A stretch of 64,000 nucleotides of DNA from Nostoc sp. S13 (GTDB taxonomy: Bacteria; Cyanobacteriota; Cyanobacteriia; Cyanobacteriales; Nostocaceae). Numbering within the stretch: position 1 is the first letter of the stretch; each line of letters starts with the position of its first letter. The notes beneath the pieces were generated by a model. It saw only the letters and a program-made list of their open reading frames with translations. It was not told where the DNA came from and did no database searches. Both the position numbers and the translations under genes were made by a program. The DNA is taken from NCBI RefSeq assembly GCF_029379315.1, contig NZ_JAQYWQ010000014.1, forward strand, positions 542 through 64,541, read 5' to 3'. This document shows, one piece after another, positions 4,759-13,758 of this stretch.

Positions 4759-4839
4759 ACTACCTCAAGCTAGGCTAGCTGACTTGTAAGGCATTTTAGC
4801 AGTAAATTAGTATATTTGTACTAAAATGATATCTTGAGT

Positions 4840-4970
4840 CCCATCACATTTGCTTCTGTGCAAGAAAAGCTTTGTTCAATCAGAAGATTCTTCAAAAAGC
4901 GGAAGCTAATGGATGGGTGCGGCAAGTTGAGATGAACCAGAAGCTTAAAACCAATCTAGAAAACATCTAG
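4840..4970 (+). pseudogene. Relic C-terminus of a cyanobacterial tyrosine recombinase/integrase-like protein
   Basis: 4878-4970 translates NQKILQKAEANGWVRQVEMNQKLKTNLENI*, resembling from memory the C-terminal tail of cyanobacterial integrase-family proteins. It has no start, and the upstream part is frameshifted. Confidence 0.5.
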
Positions 4971-5285
4971 ATTATTTTCAAAAAATTGCTATATTTAAGC
5001 TGTTATTTAAGTATAAATTTTATCCCTCTTGTTCATGTTCTCAAGAATAAAATCAATAAAGGCTTATTAAAAAAAACTTACTTAATATTAAAATCTATAA
5101 TAAAAACCAATCAATATTTGTATTGACTATAATATACTATATAGAGTAAGCTGGGAAGTTTTTTAACAAGAGCTTATTCATTATGGTAAAAATGTAATGT
5201 GTATAGATTTCAGTGCAGCAAAGTACAGTACGATTGCTGCGTAGTATTTGTGTTCCAAGTATTTTTGGTAGGAGTGGGATAATTT

Positions 5286-6011
5286 ATGTACTTGAAAATT
5301 CCTGAGCAGTATAAGTCTGGAATGGAATTTATTTTAAACACTGATGATGATAGTATTGATGTAATTATATCAGCTTTACGTGATTTTCTTCCGACCGCCG
5401 AAAACGTTATATATAAAATTTCTGAAAGAATAGTTCAAACACAAAAAGTTGATGCCCCTACTGCCGTAAAGATTGTTGACACTTTAGTATCTTTAAGGCA
5501 ATTAAACAAAGAAGAAAAATTGCCTAATGAGGCTATTGTGACTTTAATCAGTGAGTCTCTAGAAAAAGATACTGAATTTGTAGTCACAACAGAGCTAAGA
5601 GAACGTTTTAGAAAGAGGTTATCCAGCCTACTACAAGCTTTAGAAAGTATTGCTTTCTCCTTAGATATTTCGGATAAAGCTTCTAATTTACTAGTTGAAC
5701 ATGAGCGAATATTTTCAGACTCAAAAATTTTTACTGACATAAGACCTGTCTTTGACTCAGAAACTGAGAGAAAAGTAGAAGCTGCCATCTTAATTCATAC
5801 ACTTAAAATTGAGTATAGAGATACAGAGGGAACTAAAGAATTTTATATAGCTCTTGACTCAGATGATTTAGATAATTTGTATGAGCAAATAACTATTGCA
5901 ATAGACAACAGAGATGCTCTTGGATCTATTTTAAAAAAAGCAGAAATAGAGTGTATAAATCCTGTACTTGAAGTTTCAGTGTTAGAAAATCTAGAAAATG
6001 GCGATGAATAA
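5286..6011 (+). CDS. Hypothetical protein; helical N-domain plus possible COMM-like C-domain
   Basis: 241-aa ORF whose C-terminus reads as three beta strands (FSDSKIFTDIRPVF, AAILIHTLKIEY, EFYIALD) followed by a long helix. Confidence 0.7.
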   Translation: MYLKIPEQYKSGMEFILNTDDDSIDVIISALRDFLPTAENVIYKISERIVQTQKVDAPTAVKIVDTLVSLRQLNKEEKLPNEAIVTLISESLEKDTEFVVTTELRERFRKRLSSLLQALESIAFSLDISDKASNLLVEHERIFSDSKIFTDIRPVFDSETERKVEAAILIHTLKIEYRDTEGTKEFYIALDSDDLDNLYEQITIAIDNRDALGSILKKAEIECINPVLEVSVLENLENGDE

Positions 6012-6070
6012 CAACATTGATTTAACCGTATAAATATCAAAAATTTCCAATCAAGAATCAGGAGAGAAAT

Positions 6071-6736
6071 ATGTTGACATTAGAAAAAGCGAAAGAGAAA
6101 ACAAACTCTTGGACTAAAAAAATAAATACTAAAAAATTAAGTAAATATTCACATTTTCCTCAAATTAGTCAATTTTGTGTGTCTCCTGTGCCAATTCAAG
6201 AAAATTCTAAGAGTTTCAATTTACTCAAAGATAATAACTGCGATATTTATTTGAGTAATCAAATTAAAACTGAAGCAAGCAAAGTATCGTTATTGAGAAC
6301 TAAAAGTTGGAAGCAAGAGGCTTTTTCTTGGAGAGAAGAAAAAGTGCTGTGTGTTTCTTCTCAACAATCCTTACTCAAAAAAAGTAAAACTCGGAAAGCG
6401 AAGCAAATAACAAACCGTCCGTCGAGTTATCTATTAAGGCAAGCAGAAATAAAAGACACTTTTATGAAACTTGCTAATCAATGGCGTAGCGAAACCAAGC
6501 ATATGTCATTAATGAGTGATATGATTTTACACACTGCATATCAACAAATAATAGGCATGGGGACAAATGCAGTGCCTTTAATTCTTGAAGAACTAAGCAG
6601 AGAGCCGGAACACTGGTTTTGGGCATTAAGATCGATCACTGGAGCAAATCCAATTAAGCCAGAAGATAGGGGTAGGGTCAAAAAAATGGCAGAGGCTTGG
6701 TTGGATTGGGGCAGACAGCATGGATACAAGTGCTGA
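6071..6736 (+). CDS. Hypothetical protein with conserved C-terminal helical domain
   Basis: C-terminus FMKLANQWRSET...YQQIIGMGTNAVPLILEELSREPEHWFWALRSITGANP; the N-half is low-complexity and Lys/Ser-rich. Confidence 0.7.
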   Translation: MLTLEKAKEKTNSWTKKINTKKLSKYSHFPQISQFCVSPVPIQENSKSFNLLKDNNCDIYLSNQIKTEASKVSLLRTKSWKQEAFSWREEKVLCVSSQQSLLKKSKTRKAKQITNRPSSYLLRQAEIKDTFMKLANQWRSETKHMSLMSDMILHTAYQQIIGMGTNAVPLILEELSREPEHWFWALRSITGANPIKPEDRGRVKKMAEAWLDWGRQHGYKC

Positions 6737-7199
6737 ACTTGAAGCCGATTGGCCTAACTTAGCCAAGACTACATACGAAATCACAAGCAAATTCACATCT
6801 GAATACAATTGCATTGCTTGGGCAATTAACAATGAAGATGACCGTTGGTGGTCTCCTGCTCCTGAAGAGGATTATTACTGGCCTGATGGTGCCCCTAGAG
6901 AGCAAACACTACAAGCATTTATTATTGCATTCCAAATTTGCGGTTACGAGATATGCACTAATGCGGAAATTGAAGCTGGATTTGAAAAGATTGCTATATA
7001 TGTAAAAGAAGACGGTAAGCCACAGCACGTAGCTAAACAGCTAGATGATGGTATGTGGACTAGCAAACTTGGACGTTATGAAGATATAAAACACGAACTC
7101 GACGGATTAGTTGGTGAACTATACGGAAATGTGCAACAGTTAATGAAACGTGCTTTAGAGGATTTTGGCGAGATTATTTTGTCTAAGACTTTCCCTTAG
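6720..7199 (+). CDS. Putative papain-like Cys-His fold protein (DUF7689-like)
   Basis: YNCIAWA...WWSP...QHVAKQ...WTSKLG; overlaps the upstream gene by 17 nt. Confidence 0.65.
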   Translation: MDTSAELEADWPNLAKTTYEITSKFTSEYNCIAWAINNEDDRWWSPAPEEDYYWPDGAPREQTLQAFIIAFQICGYEICTNAEIEAGFEKIAIYVKEDGKPQHVAKQLDDGMWTSKLGRYEDIKHELDGLVGELYGNVQQLMKRALEDFGEIILSKTFP

Positions 7200-7289
7200 T
7201 GATTTGACAGATTACCTTTGTTGATATATCTACAAAGTAAAATGCTTACTGTATAGAACTTTGTTGTTAATAACTATAGATAAAATTAA

Positions 7290-7742
7290 CTTATGTATAC
7301 ACCGTAGCCCCGCAGGCGGGGAGGGGATTAAGGGTGGGGTTCTTCACATAACATGACATTTCCTAAGCCCAAGACAAGGGTGTGGTTGGCTGTTAGGCAA
7401 TGTTGTCCCACTTCAGCAACCATTACCACGCACGTAAAAGCAATCGTTACTAAAATGACGCTTTTGTTCTTAAAGTTGAAATTTTCCCCTTGAAATCACA
7501 CGCAAGGGGGGAAACAGGAAATTTAGTTCCCTCACCTTTGCAAGGGGAGAGTTAGGGTGGGGTGACGCGGGTAGTGATTGGAAGCCAGAGAACTGAATAT
7601 CACGTCTTAACAAGGGTTTCACATTAAGTTCACACCAATGAGCAATGCTAAACCCCTACAGTGCGGATCTATTAGACATCTCCAGAAATTAAATATGCGT
7701 TATCTATAACCCTTGTAGAGACGCGAAATTTTGCGTCTCTAC
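7290..7742. repeat. Cluster of Nostoc-type intergenic repeats, including a REP-like palindrome
   Basis: G-rich gggagggg/gggtgggg blocks and palindrome GTAGAGACGCGAAATTTTGCGTCTCTAC (7715-7742), which overlaps the stop codon of the adjacent acyltransferase. Confidence 0.55.
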
Positions 7743-8809
7743 ATTCTTTTTTGGAGATGTCTATTTAACATCAAAGTAATTTTAATTTGCAATTTTTCTC
7801 GTAATTTTTGCGCCTGTTGATAGATTGCTATACGCTTTTTACCGGAGTGAGTTTTCAACCCTACTTGTTCCAAAGGCTGAATAAAGTAACGCAGGCGAGT
7901 TCTCATTGCCCAAATTCCCATTGAAGGAAACAGAATTAAGACAAGCATTAAAGGCGAGAAAGGCAAAAATGGTAATTTGACTAGTCGTTGTAATTTATGC
8001 AAATTAACAGCCCAAGGATGTAAAAATTCACTACCGATGCAAACTACTGAGAGAATGGGAATTTGATAGCGATCGCTCAACTGAATAAAACTCCCATCAA
8101 ACTTTTGTAGTTGATAGCGTTTTTTCCAACCTTTCAGAGGGCCGCGTATACCTTCGGGTGCATATAAGAGAATTTTACCTTGAGCGATCGCCGTAGGCGT
8201 TGACGTAGCGATCGCTGCCTCAAAATCATCTAATTCCGCTCTCACACCACCTAAAACCTGCGACCATTTAGGTGGTAGCCACCAAATCACCCAAGGATGC
8301 TCAAATAATGCTGGACTTGCTACGGGTTGTACCACCCATTCTCTAGCTTCACTTAATAAATAACCCAAAGTCAAAAAGTCCCAAGGAAAACACATCCCTG
8401 CGTGATTCATTGCCACAATCAATGGCCCTGTTGGCGGCAAGTTTTCGGCTTGTTGCAATTCTCCCCGAAAATAGTGTTTAACGATGGGGCGGAGAACTTC
8501 TTCGCCAAAAGCTTGTTGATATTTAGGATCAAATTCACCAATTTCTTTTTGCGGTGAACGAAAACCAAGACGCAACCAGCGACTCAGCAGCGCCAGATAA
8601 AATCCGCCAGGAATTAAAAATAATCCATATTCTAACCAATTCCAACCATCTGGATCGCTTTGATAATGCTGCCAATGGCGATTGAATAAAATTAGCCAGC
8701 CTGGAGGATACCAAAGACAAAACCAATCAAACCAGCTAAATATATAGCCTTCAACTGGTGCATTTTCCAGTTGAGTGTTTAAGAGGTTTTCGGAGTCTTG
8801 ATTAATCAA
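7739..8809 (-). CDS. Acyltransferase (PlsC/DGAT-like)
   Basis: NHAG motif (HxxxxD) and APEG motif. Confidence 0.8.
   Translation of the reverse strand: MINQDSENLLNTQLENAPVEGYIFSWFDWFCLWYPPGWLILFNRHWQHYQSDPDGWNWLEYGLFLIPGGFYLALLSRWLRLGFRSPQKEIGEFDPKYQQAFGEEVLRPIVKHYFRGELQQAENLPPTGPLIVAMNHAGMCFPWDFLTLGYLLSEAREWVVQPVASPALFEHPWVIWWLPPKWSQVLGGVRAELDDFEAAIATSTPTAIAQGKILLYAPEGIRGPLKGWKKRYQLQKFDGSFIQLSDRYQIPILSVVCIGSEFLHPWAVNLHKLQRLVKLPFLPFSPLMLVLILFPSMGIWAMRTRLRYFIQPLEQVGLKTHSGKKRIAIYQQAQKLREKLQIKITLMLNRHLQKRM
8184..8215. repeat. 24-bp in-frame insertion between two HIP1 copies
   Basis: GCGATCGC-cgtaggcgttgacgta-GCGATCGC; gives AIA-TSTPT-AIA in the protein. Confidence 0.75.
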
Positions 8810-9387: not shown

Positions 9388-9573
9388 GGACTTACGCACT
9401 GTACAAATTAATCATGGTATGCATTTACCAAAATAGGTTGTTTCAGGGTTTTATTGCTCATTTTTTGATGGTAAATAAATCCGCGCTGTCGGGGCTACTC
9501 ATGAATTACCCGGACGACAGATGTGGTTTTTTAAATCATCCATATTTGGTATTTTCCGTCAATGCGTAAATTC
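9388..9573. mobile_element. Degenerate MITE-like element with GGACTTACGCA termini
   Basis: Left end GGACTTACGCA and right end TGCGTAAATTC; same terminus family as 22565-22795. Confidence 0.5.
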
Positions 9574-9725: not shown

Positions 9726-9980
9726 ATGCAACTAGGAAAGCCACTAAAAATTTTAGATTTAATCCGTGAACTTCGGCAGCAACTCAATCTCTCTCAGGAA
9801 AAGTTTGCAGCCAAGTTGGGAGTTTCGCTGCGAACAGTCAATCGCTGGGAGAACGGATCTACAGTGCCTTCACAGATGGCACTGAAGCTAATTGAAAAAA
9901 TGTTAGAGAACATGGGCGAACCAGGCAAAAGATTACTGAACGAGTATCTTCCAAAAGCGAAGCAACGGGAGGACTCTTAA
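9726..9980 (+). CDS. XRE-family helix-turn-helix protein
   Basis: LRQQLNLSQEKFAAKLGVSLRTVNRWENG. Confidence 0.9.
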   Translation: MQLGKPLKILDLIRELRQQLNLSQEKFAAKLGVSLRTVNRWENGSTVPSQMALKLIEKMLENMGEPGKRLLNEYLPKAKQREDS

Positions 9981-9981
9981 A

Positions 9982-12900
9982 ATGATGGTGAAAGTATCCA
10001 AAAAAATTTTGATGATGCGTCCTCGGTTACTAAGCTATGGTGTGATGATTCTGGCAGTCATAGCGGCGCTCTTAGTGACACGACTGTTGTTACCAGTCTT
10101 CGATCCGAGCGTATTTACATTATTTTATGCTGCCGTGGCAGTGAGCGCGTGGTATGGCGGCATGAGATTTGGAGTGCTAGCGATCGCCTTATCTGTTATA
10201 ACTGCCTTTTACTTTTTGATTGAGCCAGTCTACTCATTCAATATTGTTAGCCTGAGCATCTTGGTACGATTAACCACATTCTCACTAGTATCTTTCTTAA
10301 TTACTGCACTCTCTTCAGAGTTGCGAACAGCTAGAGGCAAGGCAGAGACAAGCCTGAAGTTGTTGCAAAATAGCGAAATGCGGTTTAGCCGACTGGCAGA
10401 ATCCAACATCATTGGGGTGATCCTAACTGATATGAACAACGGCTCGATCATCGAAGCCAATGATGCTTTTCTGAAGATGGTCGGCTATACACCAGAAGAT
10501 TTGTCCGCTAACCAAATCAACTGGCGTGAGATTACCCCACCTGAGTATCTTCTTTTAAGTGAGCGTTCAGTGGAAGAACTGAAAACTACCGGAGTATGTA
10601 AGCCCTTTGAGAAAGAATACATTCGTAAAAATGGCGATCGCATTCCTGTTCTGCTCGGTTCTGTGCTTGTGGGGGATACTCAAGAAACAGTCATTGGCTT
10701 CGTTGTTGATTTGAGCGAACGCCAACAAGCAAAAGCGGCATTACAGCAAGCCAATGAGCGGAACACACGCACTTTGGAAAACATGAGTGATGCATTTATT
10801 ACTTTAGACCGGGGTTGGCGAATCATCTACCAAAATGCGGAAGCAGAGCGAATTAACGGCAAACCCCGCATAGAGGTGATTGGTAAATCGCACTGGGATG
10901 AGTGGCCTCTATCACTAGGCACGAATGTAGAGCGCCAGTACCATCGAGCGATCGCAGAACAGATTACCGTCCACTTCGAGCATCACTACTACTTGCCGTC
11001 TAAGTATGACCTGTGGCTGGAGATTCACGCTTACCCTTGTGAAGATGGTCTTGACATTTTCTTCCGTGACATCAGCAAACGCAAGCAAGCAGAGAAGGCA
11101 GTCGAAGCAAGTGAGGAACGCCTGAGAAGTTTTGTGAAAGCAAATGTAGTTGGCATCCTCTTTGGTGATGTGAATGGGGCGATCACTGAAGCCAATGACG
11201 AGTTCTTGCGAATTGTCGGCTATACCCAGGAAGATATCCAGGCGGGGAGACTACGCTGGAGTGATATCACGCCCCCTGAGTACCATTATTTAGATGAACT
11301 GGCGATCGCCGAGGCAACAGCGAAAGGAAGCTGCACTCCCTATGAGAAGGAATGTATTCGCCAGGATGGTTCCAGTGTCCCGGTTGTAGTTGGCTATTCC
11401 ATGTTAGGAGAATCTCGGCAGAAATCAGTCGCACTCATTCTCGATATTAGTGATCTCAAACAAGCTAAAAAGGCGCTGAGTCAGAGTCAAGAGCAATTTC
11501 AAGCTTTTATGGACAATATTCCAGCCGCAGCATGGATTACGAATGCAGACGGACGTGTACTTTATCTCAGCCCAACTTATCTCAGCACATTTTATTTAGC
11601 AACAAATAAAGCGATTAATAAAAATATTATTGACCTATACCCAGCCGAAATCGCTCAACCCTTCCTCGATAATATTAGAATGGTTGTCGAGACAAATCAG
11701 GTTATTGAAACGATCGAATCTGCCCCCCGCACAGATGGCACCTTGGGGGAATTTTTGGTATATAAGTTTCCCATTGCCGATGCATCTGGGCAACGCCTGG
11801 TAGGAGGGGTTGCAGTTGACATCACCGAACGCGAACGCGCCCTTCGTGAACGCCAGCTTGCAGAAAAAGCCTTACAAGAGCGCAGTGAACGACTTAAACT
11901 GCTCTCTGAAACAACCAGCGATTTGCTTTCAACTGAGCGCCCTTTGGATTTAATGAACAGCTTGTTTAGCAAACTCTCGGCGCAGATGGATTTGCATTTT
12001 TACTTTCACTATCTAATTGATATACACGAAAATAAGCACAAACTTCGGTTAGTAGGTTGGAACGGCATTACTGATGAAGTATTTCAAGCAATTGAATACC
12101 TGGAATTTAATCAAGGGATGTGCGGACTAGTGGTGCAAGAACGCCATCAAATTGTCCTTAATGATGTGTTGCACTCTACCCATCCAAATGCTGAGATCAT
12201 CCAGACTTTGCGAATTACAGCCTATGCAGGTCAACCATTAATTGCTCAGGGAAAGCTGCTTGGTGTCCTTTCCTTTGCCAGTCGCACCCGTACCCACTTC
12301 ACTTCTGGGGAAATTGCTTTATTACAAGCAACCTCCGATCAGGTAGCGGTTGCTCTGGAACGCGCCGAGTTGATAGCTTCGTTACAGCAGCAAAAAGAGC
12401 AATTAATCCAAGCTAACCGGATCAAAGATGAATTTTTGGCAGTTCTTTCCCACGAACTTCGCACGCCGCTAAACCCGATTCTGGGATGGGCGAAGTTACT
12501 GCAAACTAAAAAGTATGATCAAGCAACCACCACTCGCGCTCTGGAAACCATTGAACGCAATGCCAAGCTTCAGACTCAACTAATTGAAGATTTGCTGGAT
12601 GTCTCTCGCATTTTGCAAGGTAAACTCAGCCTGAATATTGCTCCTGTGAATCTGGAAAGTGCGATCGCCGCAGCAATAGAAACTGTACGTCTAGCGGCTG
12701 AAGCCAAATCTATCAATTTGCAATTTACGATTTTAGACTTTACTGCGGAACGCTACGCGAACGGCTTCTCTACGAGAGGCTACGCAAACGCTCAGTCGAA
12801 CGATTTGGGATTAGAAAATTCTTATAGAAATTTAGAATCTATCGATTTTAATAAGGAATCTGACAATCTCAAATCCCAAATCCAAATTGGGCTGGAAGCA

Positions 12901-13758
12901 GATCAAAGGGGCGACCCAAAATTGCTAGTAACCGGTGATTCAAGTCGTTTGCAGCAAGTTATCTGGAATCTACTTTCCAATGCGATTAAGTTTACGCCCC
13001 CAGGTGGACAGGTAGAAATCAGTTTAGAGTCTATTGGTTCTCAGGTTCAACTTCAAGTTCGTGATACAGGTAAGGGAATTAACCCAGATTTTTTACCCTA
13101 TGTATTTGCCTACTTCCGACAAGCTGATGGTGCAACTACCAGGAAATACGGCGGACTGGGATTAGGATTAGCTATTGTTCGTCACATCGTAGAACTACAT
13201 GGCGGCACAGTTAAGGCAGAAAGTTTGGGCGAAGAACAGGGAGCAACCTTTACAGTCATGCTACCACTGATCAAGATTCATCTAAATAGCCAGAAAATTG
13301 ATAGACAACCTGATGATTTTGCTGATCTAAAAGGGGTAAAGGTTCTGCTTGTGGATGATGAGCAGGATACGCGAGAGTTAATTGCTTTCATTTTGGAGCA
13401 GTCTGGCGCGGAAGTAATCCAGGCAGAATCGGCTGTGGAAGCACTACGAGTTATGCCTCAGTTCCAGCCAAATCTGCTGTTAAGCGACATTGGAATGCCG
13501 GAAGTAGACGGCTATATGTTGATGCGTCAAATCAGAGCCATGTTACCAGAACTTGGAGGGAAAATTCCCGCGATCGCCCTGACAGCTTACGCAGCTGAGG
13601 TTGATTACCAACAGGCAATTGCTGCCGGATTTGGTCAGCATATCACCAAGCCTGTGGAACCAGCTAAATTAATTCGAGCGATCGCTAACCTGATTTGTAG
13701 TTGTAGCGATCTGAAAACTAACTTACAACCCTTGGAAGCTCGAAAAAGACATAATTAA
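9982..13758 (+). CDS. Hybrid sensor histidine kinase (TM sensor, multiple PAS, GAF, HisKA, HATPase, receiver)
   Basis: H-box FLAVLSHELRTPLNPILGW, N-box QVIWNLLSNAIKFT, G-boxes DTGKGI and GGLGLGL, receiver LLVDDE...LLSDIGMP. Confidence 0.95.
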   Translation: MMVKVSKKILMMRPRLLSYGVMILAVIAALLVTRLLLPVFDPSVFTLFYAAVAVSAWYGGMRFGVLAIALSVITAFYFLIEPVYSFNIVSLSILVRLTTFSLVSFLITALSSELRTARGKAETSLKLLQNSEMRFSRLAESNIIGVILTDMNNGSIIEANDAFLKMVGYTPEDLSANQINWREITPPEYLLLSERSVEELKTTGVCKPFEKEYIRKNGDRIPVLLGSVLVGDTQETVIGFVVDLSERQQAKAALQQANERNTRTLENMSDAFITLDRGWRIIYQNAEAERINGKPRIEVIGKSHWDEWPLSLGTNVERQYHRAIAEQITVHFEHHYYLPSKYDLWLEIHAYPCEDGLDIFFRDISKRKQAEKAVEASEERLRSFVKANVVGILFGDVNGAITEANDEFLRIVGYTQEDIQAGRLRWSDITPPEYHYLDELAIAEATAKGSCTPYEKECIRQDGSSVPVVVGYSMLGESRQKSVALILDISDLKQAKKALSQSQEQFQAFMDNIPAAAWITNADGRVLYLSPTYLSTFYLATNKAINKNIIDLYPAEIAQPFLDNIRMVVETNQVIETIESAPRTDGTLGEFLVYKFPIADASGQRLVGGVAVDITERERALRERQLAEKALQERSERLKLLSETTSDLLSTERPLDLMNSLFSKLSAQMDLHFYFHYLIDIHENKHKLRLVGWNGITDEVFQAIEYLEFNQGMCGLVVQERHQIVLNDVLHSTHPNAEIIQTLRITAYAGQPLIAQGKLLGVLSFASRTRTHFTSGEIALLQATSDQVAVALERAELIASLQQQKEQLIQANRIKDEFLAVLSHELRTPLNPILGWAKLLQTKKYDQATTTRALETIERNAKLQTQLIEDLLDVSRILQGKLSLNIAPVNLESAIAAAIETVRLAAEAKSINLQFTILDFTAERYANGFSTRGYANAQSNDLGLENSYRNLESIDFNKESDNLKSQIQIGLEADQRGDPKLLVTGDSSRLQQVIWNLLSNAIKFTPPGGQVEISLESIGSQVQLQVRDTGKGINPDFLPYVFAYFRQADGATTRKYGGLGLGLAIVRHIVELHGGTVKAESLGEEQGATFTVMLPLIKIHLNSQKIDRQPDDFADLKGVKVLLVDDEQDTRELIAFILEQSGAEVIQAESAVEALRVMPQFQPNLLLSDIGMPEVDGYMLMRQIRAMLPELGGKIPAIALTAYAAEVDYQQAIAAGFGQHITKPVEPAKLIRAIANLICSCSDLKTNLQPLEARKRHN
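12743..12801. repeat. Nested small dispersed repeats in frame inside the kinase
   Basis: gaacgctacgcgaacggcttctctacgagaggctacgcaaacgctcagtcgaac lies within a roughly 55-aa extra segment between HisKA and HATPase. Confidence 0.6.

Follow-up and report, generated by a model that had tools for sequence, protein, structure and literature searches.

In eukaryotes, the Commander trafficking complex is built around a ring of COMMD proteins. The window, that is, the whole 64,000-nucleotide stretch of Nostoc sp. S13 DNA analysed here, carries an open reading frame that the initial annotation took to encode a possible bacterial protein of this kind, standing at the head of an accessory operon. This raises two questions: is the protein a relative of the eukaryotic ring-formers, and what might a ring protein be doing beside the genes that follow it?

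The COMMD-like protein and its family

The reading frame is intact, with an ATG start and 241 codons, and it is the only COMMD-like gene copy in this Nostoc genome. Pfam, NCBIfam and PADLOC gave no above-threshold match for its product, and two candidates, MscS_porin (16 bits, cut-off 34.4) and WapI (13.9 bits, cut-off 27), were rejected as noise. A word-indexed search retrieved 43 relatives, the nearest being Nostoc proteins labelled hypothetical, and an exhaustive HMMER search for the family returned 3645 representatives of 50%-identity clusters at E <= 1e-3, 1266 of them at E <= 1e-10. When 39 relatives were aligned, the C-terminal third proved to be the best-kept part. D151, I152, R153, P154, V155, F156, H171, L173, I175, L190, D194 and L198 are invariant or nearly so, and the core motifs of the family read DIRPVF, HTLKI.Y and EFY.ALD.DDL..L.

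A phmmer search of the PDB with the 241-aa protein alone found the COMMD-like protein MBK5214510 (9q6a_A) at E 5.1e-22, over residues 2-211. The same protein, represented by 9q6a, 9q6c and 9q6d, was the only one matched by the family profile (E 1.3e-34), and its identity to the Nostoc protein over the full length is 28%.

An AlphaFold2 (AF2) model built from the 39-sequence alignment (mean pLDDT 84.9, pTM 0.69) begins with the six helices of an HN domain (7-18, 21-32, 41-50, 57-76, 81-94 and 102-138) and continues with a COMM domain of three strands (142-156, 164-179 and 182-190) and a long helix (192-218). This agrees with the layout of a helical N-terminal region, three strands and a long helix that had been read from the sequence, and the segments singled out at that time, FSDSKIFTDIRPVF, AAILIHTLKIEY, KEFYIALD and the one beginning SDDLDNLYEQ, lie on the three strands and the long helix of the model and belong to the best-kept part of the family. 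Foldseek against the PDB placed 9q6a first (E 3e-12, TM 0.70/0.78), followed by human COMMD chains from the CCC/Commander structures 8f2r, 8esd and 8p0w (E 8e-7 to 9e-5, probability 1.00) and then by the Commd9 COMM domain, 6bp6. With VIA-align the match to 9q6a took in 212 of its 214 residues, HN domain included, at Z 15.8; Z was 8.4 to human COMMD10, 7.9 to the Commd9 COMM domain 6bp6 (77 of 78 residues) and 5.5 to the COMMD9 HN domain 4oe9.

The call of a COMM-type fold, first made from sequence patterns, is therefore borne out by both sequence and structure, and the likeness to the COMM domain on which the initial annotation had staked that call is present with Foldseek and VIA-align alike. 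A scan with the Pfam COMM-domain model came out differently: this HMM gave no match to the 241-aa protein at E <= 0.1. The miss is expected, because prokaryotic COMMD-like proteins are less than 20% identical to eukaryotic members (PMC13392464), and kinship to the eukaryotic family of the Pfam model is at the level of fold or remote homology. Might the protein instead be a convergent look-alike, of the CT584/Cpn0803 or the Pur-alpha/Whirly type, and no COMMD homologue? Low VIA matches to Cpn0803 (3q9d, Z 4.6) and Pur-alpha (3n8b, Z 5.0) would fit such a view, but sequence homology to a solved COMMD-like protein extends over the full length, and the structural match to 9q6a leaves out only two of 214 residues and covers the HN domain. 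We consider convergence extremely improbable. This gene almost certainly encodes a bacterial protein related to the ring-forming COMMDs of eukaryotes.

The initial annotation expected such a protein to be unusual, but a prokaryotic COMMD-like family has meanwhile been published (Liu et al., Nat Commun 2026; PMC13392464), and the fold by itself is not a novelty. Their set comprises 250 bacterial proteins, with cyanobacteria among the phyla, and MBK5214510 and myxobacterial members formed homo-octameric and homo-decameric rings by crystallography and cryo-EM (PMC13392464). The Nostoc protein is an added member of this family and presents no new fold. Like MBK5214510, which comes from a Flavobacteriaceae bacterium, it joins a six-helix HN domain to a three-strand, one-helix COMM domain and is encoded once per genome. 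The rings of MBK5214510 have been solved, whereas the Nostoc oligomer is predicted from homology to it: most likely a homo-octameric or homo-decameric ring assembled through COMM-domain dimers. Eukaryotic COMMD1-10 (8f2r, 8p0w, 8esd, 6bp6 and 4oe9) have the same fold in both domains, but they are only 6-17% identical to the Nostoc protein and are ten paralogues as against one gene.

An accessory, mobile cassette headed by the COMMD-like gene

The COMMD-like gene is followed by two further genes (Table 1). Gene 2 starts 59 nt past the COMMD-like stop and overlaps gene 3 by 17 nt. With the leader, the three genes make up an AT-rich cassette of ~2.3 kb. GC content is 0.28-0.34 over positions 4800-6600 versus ~0.41 in the flanks, and the genes flanking the cassette lie on the opposite strand. 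The flanks themselves are kept in the genus, on the left up to position 4825 and on the right from about 7408, with an acyltransferase gene beginning at 7777. From the flanking 164-aa gene to this acyltransferase gene, the distance is ~720-970 bp in at least eight congeners versus 2937 bp here, and the cassette is absent from the otherwise syntenic site in at least eight same-genus genomes. At the DNA level it was not found in 27 of the 30 sampled congeners. The G227 copy of the block lies on a contig that differs from those of both flanks. The empty congener sites, the 95% identical copy elsewhere in G227 and the low GC content therefore identify the block as an accessory, horizontally moving unit with the COMMD-like gene at its head, in line with the accessory operon first proposed.

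Table 1. Cassette features and surrounding elements, in window positions
Feature	Position	Strand	Description
Insertion	4826..7407		relative to the empty site of congener G226
Mobile unit	4968..7283	+	95% DNA identity to a block in congener species G227, in other genomic context
Leader	4968-5285		AT-rich, 318 nt, upstream of the COMMD-like gene
COMMD-like protein, 241 aa	5286..6011	+	HN domain ~7-138; COMM domain (strands 142-190, helix 192-218)
Gene 2, 221 aa	6071..6736	+	variable N-terminal extension ~1-128; conserved C-domain ~129-221
Gene 3, 159 aa, DUF7689	6720..7199	+	Pfam E 8.7e-41
Short interspersed repeat	7504-7659		recurs across the genus
Short interspersed repeat	7671-7765		recurs across the genus
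Terminator-like hairpin	7714-7743		within the preceding repeat
Short interspersed repeat	9389-9569		recurs across the genus
HTH gene and sensor kinase gene	9726-13758	+	84-aa XRE-type HTH; 1258-aa hybrid sensor kinase

A look for terminal repeats at the ends of the insertion, direct or inverted, found nothing convincing, and promoter and terminator scans stayed at chance level. In G227 the cassette copy adjoins a 176-aa ORF (L022:993-1523, minus strand) that resembles Phage_integrase weakly and at a sub-threshold score (E 1.9e-4), which may be a remnant of the vehicle moving the cassette. None of the three cassette proteins matched PADLOC-DB 2.0 at E <= 0.1, and there are no defence genes among the neighbours at the locus. 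Of the three short interspersed repeats beyond the cassette, the middle one recurs on six further contigs of the same genome, in copies 96-99% identical, and contains a 16-nt inverted repeat along with its hairpin. The XRE-type gene lies directly upstream of the gene for the hybrid sensor kinase, whose domains are DUF4118, four PAS, GAF, HisKA, HATPase and a receiver.

Linkage to an exchangeable pair of genes

A search of 201 Nostocaceae species genomes found full-length COMMD-like genes at 17 loci in 16 genomes. A gene 2 of 147-221 aa follows the COMMD-like gene on the same strand at all 17 Nostocaceae loci, the gap between them being 9-25 nt except in the window, where it is 59 nt. A third gene overlaps or abuts gene 2 (0 nt gap) at every one of these loci except L008. 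The downstream genes come in different versions: the gene-2 C-domain with DUF7689 at seven loci, the window included; a 147-181-aa unknown protein with HEPN at eight loci, plus L008, where the third gene has been lost; and DUF4325 with a PIN-like protein, the PIN match being below the Pfam cut-off, at one locus. Two of the three HEPN proteins scanned scored above the Pfam cut-off, with 27.9 and 24.9 bits. Genes of ~420 aa found upstream in relatives were considered as a fourth cassette gene and rejected, being psaB or a VWA protein according to the group and hence conserved neighbours only.

The arrangement extends to other phyla. A second gene follows tightly at 24 of 25 loci from Acidobacteriota, Calditrichota, Desulfobacterales, Bacteroidota, Betaproteobacteria and Planctomycetota, a set that was found via a sub-alignment and is biased to one acidobacterial clade. 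The exact trio of COMMD-like gene, gene-2 C-domain and DUF7689 is present at 19 of these 25 loci (Acidobacteriota, Hanamia and Pelomonas). Its range takes in Acidobacteriota, Bacteroidota and Betaproteobacteria. The sampled loci are interrelated, and all such counts measure recurrence and overstate independence.

Gene 2 belongs to no Pfam family, and in the ESM Atlas it has only unnamed clusters and no structure. Its C-domain is conserved (F131, W138, AYQ.IIGMG, HWFWAL, W210 and W213), and the N-terminal extension, 128 aa long in the window, is rich in K, S and N and poorly conserved. The stretch preceding the C-domain has a median length of ~76 aa in ring-linked genes (34 entries, or 27 distinct loci after 7 duplicates) versus 15 aa in stand-alone pairs (21 pairs), all of these lengths being upper bounds from mechanically placed ORF starts. 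The stand-alone DUF7689 pairs L033-L035 (genus g47) depart from this association of a long extension with the ring: their gene 2 has an N-terminal stretch of ~81 aa, and a COMMD-like gene is lacking in the vicinity.

DUF7689 is found in 40 of the 201 Nostocaceae genomes, with a COMMD-like gene alongside in only seven. Within these 40 genomes, every intact copy whose upstream sequence could be read has the gene-2 C-domain before it. The pair of genes 2 and 3 stands on its own, and the ring is an optional addition to it.

How the parts are exchanged can be seen from two loci, L005 and L006, whose DNA is 80% identical from psaB onwards, over the whole COMMD-like gene and into gene 2 for ~62 codons. 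Past this point (oriented position ~2381), L005 continues into DUF4325 and a PIN-like gene, and L006 into the gene-2 C-domain and DUF7689. The transition inside gene 2 is a recombination breakpoint. From this pattern of homology it follows that the ring gene and the start of gene 2 are the constant part, and the C-domain and the enzyme the exchangeable one.

Elsewhere, the HN domain occurs without COMM, fused directly to the gene-2 C-domain (L060, L061, L063 and P0366; hhalign probability 97.4%). These fusion proteins of 249-256 aa (for example L060:1150-1899, minus strand), with an overlapping DUF7689 gene after them, are spread over four species of a related family and Tumidithrix. Such loci are a natural ring-less version of the cassette, and the fusions speak for joint action of the HN domain with the product of gene 2. 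At L062 an HN-only match lies within a longer frame of 325 aa. A different fusion, of 396 aa (L059:1483-2673, plus strand) and from another genome, consists of HN, a partial COMM domain and a DUF5678-like C-terminus whose score of 22.9 bits narrowly misses the cut-off. Downstream of it, L059:2677-3054 (plus strand) encodes a 125-aa retropepsin-like protein that has a DTG motif and Pfam matches below the cut-offs.

These observations bear on whether the COMMD-like gene simply adjoins the downstream pair and is functionally unconnected with it. That most DUF7689 pairs (33 of 40 genomes) have no ring gene is in keeping with such an accident of position. Against it stand the same adjacency and orientation throughout the Nostocaceae loci and at all but one of those from other phyla, the existence of HN-gene 2 fusions, and a swap breakpoint that falls inside gene 2 and not between genes. 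We regard a chance association as very improbable.

Gene 3 adds a putative enzyme to this arrangement. Its DUF7689 domain gave an AF2 model with a pLDDT of 90.2, in which C31 is at the start of a helix (31-37) and H103 is within a strand (101-107). Both residues, along with N30, S115 and K116, are invariant in 29 DUF7689 sequences down to 43% identity, and D122 and H125 are near-invariant. Foldseek matches were weak (E >= 0.012) and included phytochelatin synthase, Josephin-type proteases, C39 and NlpC/P60. In a VIA search of 48,161 chains, independent of Foldseek, ~45 of the top 50 belonged to the papain-like superfamily, with a best Z of 6.2; among the folds in this top 50 were NlpC/P60, AvrPphB, CHAP, CDI toxin, staphopain, Tse1/Tae3, C39, C58 and deubiquitinases (DUBs). 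A comparison of the DUF7689 profile with PDB sequences gave nothing significant, and our literature search found no paper naming DUF7689. By its fold and invariant residues, DUF7689 is a candidate papain-like Cys31/His103 enzyme, and from the model we infer that it would act as a Cys-His hydrolase or transferase.

Candidate roles of the ring and what they would mean

The function of prokaryotic COMMD-like proteins was described by Liu et al. as 'currently unclear', the sole context reported being a T6SS-like neighbourhood in Myxococcota (PMC13392464). For the other Commander subunits, Liu et al. found no prokaryotic counterparts apart from the common VPS29 and DENN folds (PMC13392464). The neighbours in Nostoc differ from that context, being a putative partner protein and the papain-like DUF7689 candidate enzyme. 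We infer that the ring is a scaffold or regulator of this enzyme/partner pair. Taken jointly, the identity of the protein and its place in a mobile cassette very probably give the best explanation of the locus.

As to mechanism, the gene 2 C-domain might hold or inhibit DUF7689, in the manner of an antitoxin/toxin or inhibitor/enzyme pair, the N-terminal extension might tether the pair to HN domains on the ring rim, and 8-10 copies of the pair would thereby be gathered or gated by the ring. The putative tether is modelled on the CCDC22/CCDC93 linkers of Commander, since HN domains of eukaryotic COMMDs engage extended CCDC22/93 chains (bioRxiv 10.64898/2026.02.02.703414). We offer this combination, a C-domain that would restrain the enzyme and an extension that would dock the pair on HN domains, tentatively, as something that falls somewhat short of an even chance. 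The broader scaffold proposal also has evidence to contend with. The pair does not depend on a ring, a COMMD-like neighbour being present in only 7 of 40 DUF7689 genomes, and HN-only fusions dispense with COMM, which means that some versions of the cassette need no closed ring. Structure searches with DUF7689 gave weak matches (Foldseek E >= 0.012, Z <= 6.2), the scores behind the PIN-like and retropepsin-like assignments are below Pfam cut-offs, and none of the three proteins matches a PADLOC model. Moreover, AlphaFold predictions by Liu et al. gave no contacts between COMMD-like proteins and neighbours in the clades examined (PMC13392464).

The most obvious analogy is to type II toxin-antitoxin and papain-like toxin-immunity pairs (9l5u; HEPN and PIN modules). 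Genes 2 and 3 resemble these in having a small coupled partner upstream, in being widespread on their own and in the exchangeability of the enzyme class (DUF7689, HEPN or PIN-like). They differ in the third, predicted ring-forming component upstream and in that gene 2 has no recognisable DNA-binding domain. The fold match between DUF7689 and 9l5u is weak (E 0.09), and the likeness to toxins comes here from gene order, overlap and the occurrence of the pair on its own.

The trio could be a system of genetic conflict, whether for phage defence of the abortive-infection type or for addiction in the manner of toxin-antitoxin modules, with DUF7689 as toxin, gene 2 as antidote and the COMMD-like ring as the sensor or platform from which a trigger would free the toxin. 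The antitoxin-before-toxin order with its translationally coupled overlap would fit, as would a third gene exchangeable among toxin-type classes (HEPN, above its cut-off, and PIN-like and retropepsin-like), a patchy distribution (16-17 of 201 Nostocaceae and 14 of 401 cyanobacterial genomes) and an AT-rich, mobile cassette; papain-like toxin/immunity pairs and CDI or T6SS effectors are also among the weak fold matches of DUF7689. The absence of PADLOC matches and of defence genes beside the cassette at this locus counts against a conflict system, as does the independence of the pair from the ring. We consider it possible, if rather unlikely. Our literature search found no paper tying COMM-domain proteins to toxin-antitoxin systems. 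Another candidate is a ring that would serve, outside any genetic conflict, as a housekeeping-type platform for a regulated peptidase or transferase, for example in processing a specific substrate or in a stress response. The papain-like fold of DUF7689 also covers phytochelatin synthase, transglutaminases and deubiquitinases, and eukaryotic COMMD rings are scaffolds, not enzymes (PMC13392464), both of which suit such a role. But the cassette is accessory and mobile, missing at the DNA level from nine-tenths of the sampled congeners, and a downstream pair swapped between unrelated enzyme classes at one locus would be unusual for a dedicated pathway; this role seems to us distinctly unlikely.

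To return to the ring as scaffold or regulator, a more general form of the idea is that COMMD-like rings are the constant platform of mobile modules, on which the gene 2 tether docks swappable pairs, the ring acting as sensor or gate for a toxin-type effector. The effectors swapped would be the papain-like DUF7689, HEPN, PIN-like and retropepsin-like proteins. We hold this generalisation as an unlikely one. If it were true, a ring joined to an extended adaptor chain would be an ancestral mode of COMMD action that predates Commander.

What is new at this locus is the context, in which a ring gene is tied to a pair of partner and enzyme genes. Nature also supplies controls for this coupling, in the HN-only fusions, in pairs that lack the ring and in the exchange of one pair for another at a single chromosomal site. 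Should the ring bind the gene 2 extension, gene 2 would provide prokaryotic COMMD-like proteins with their first functional partner, and the interaction would be a possible evolutionary precedent for the way in which CCDC22/93 engage the eukaryotic ring.
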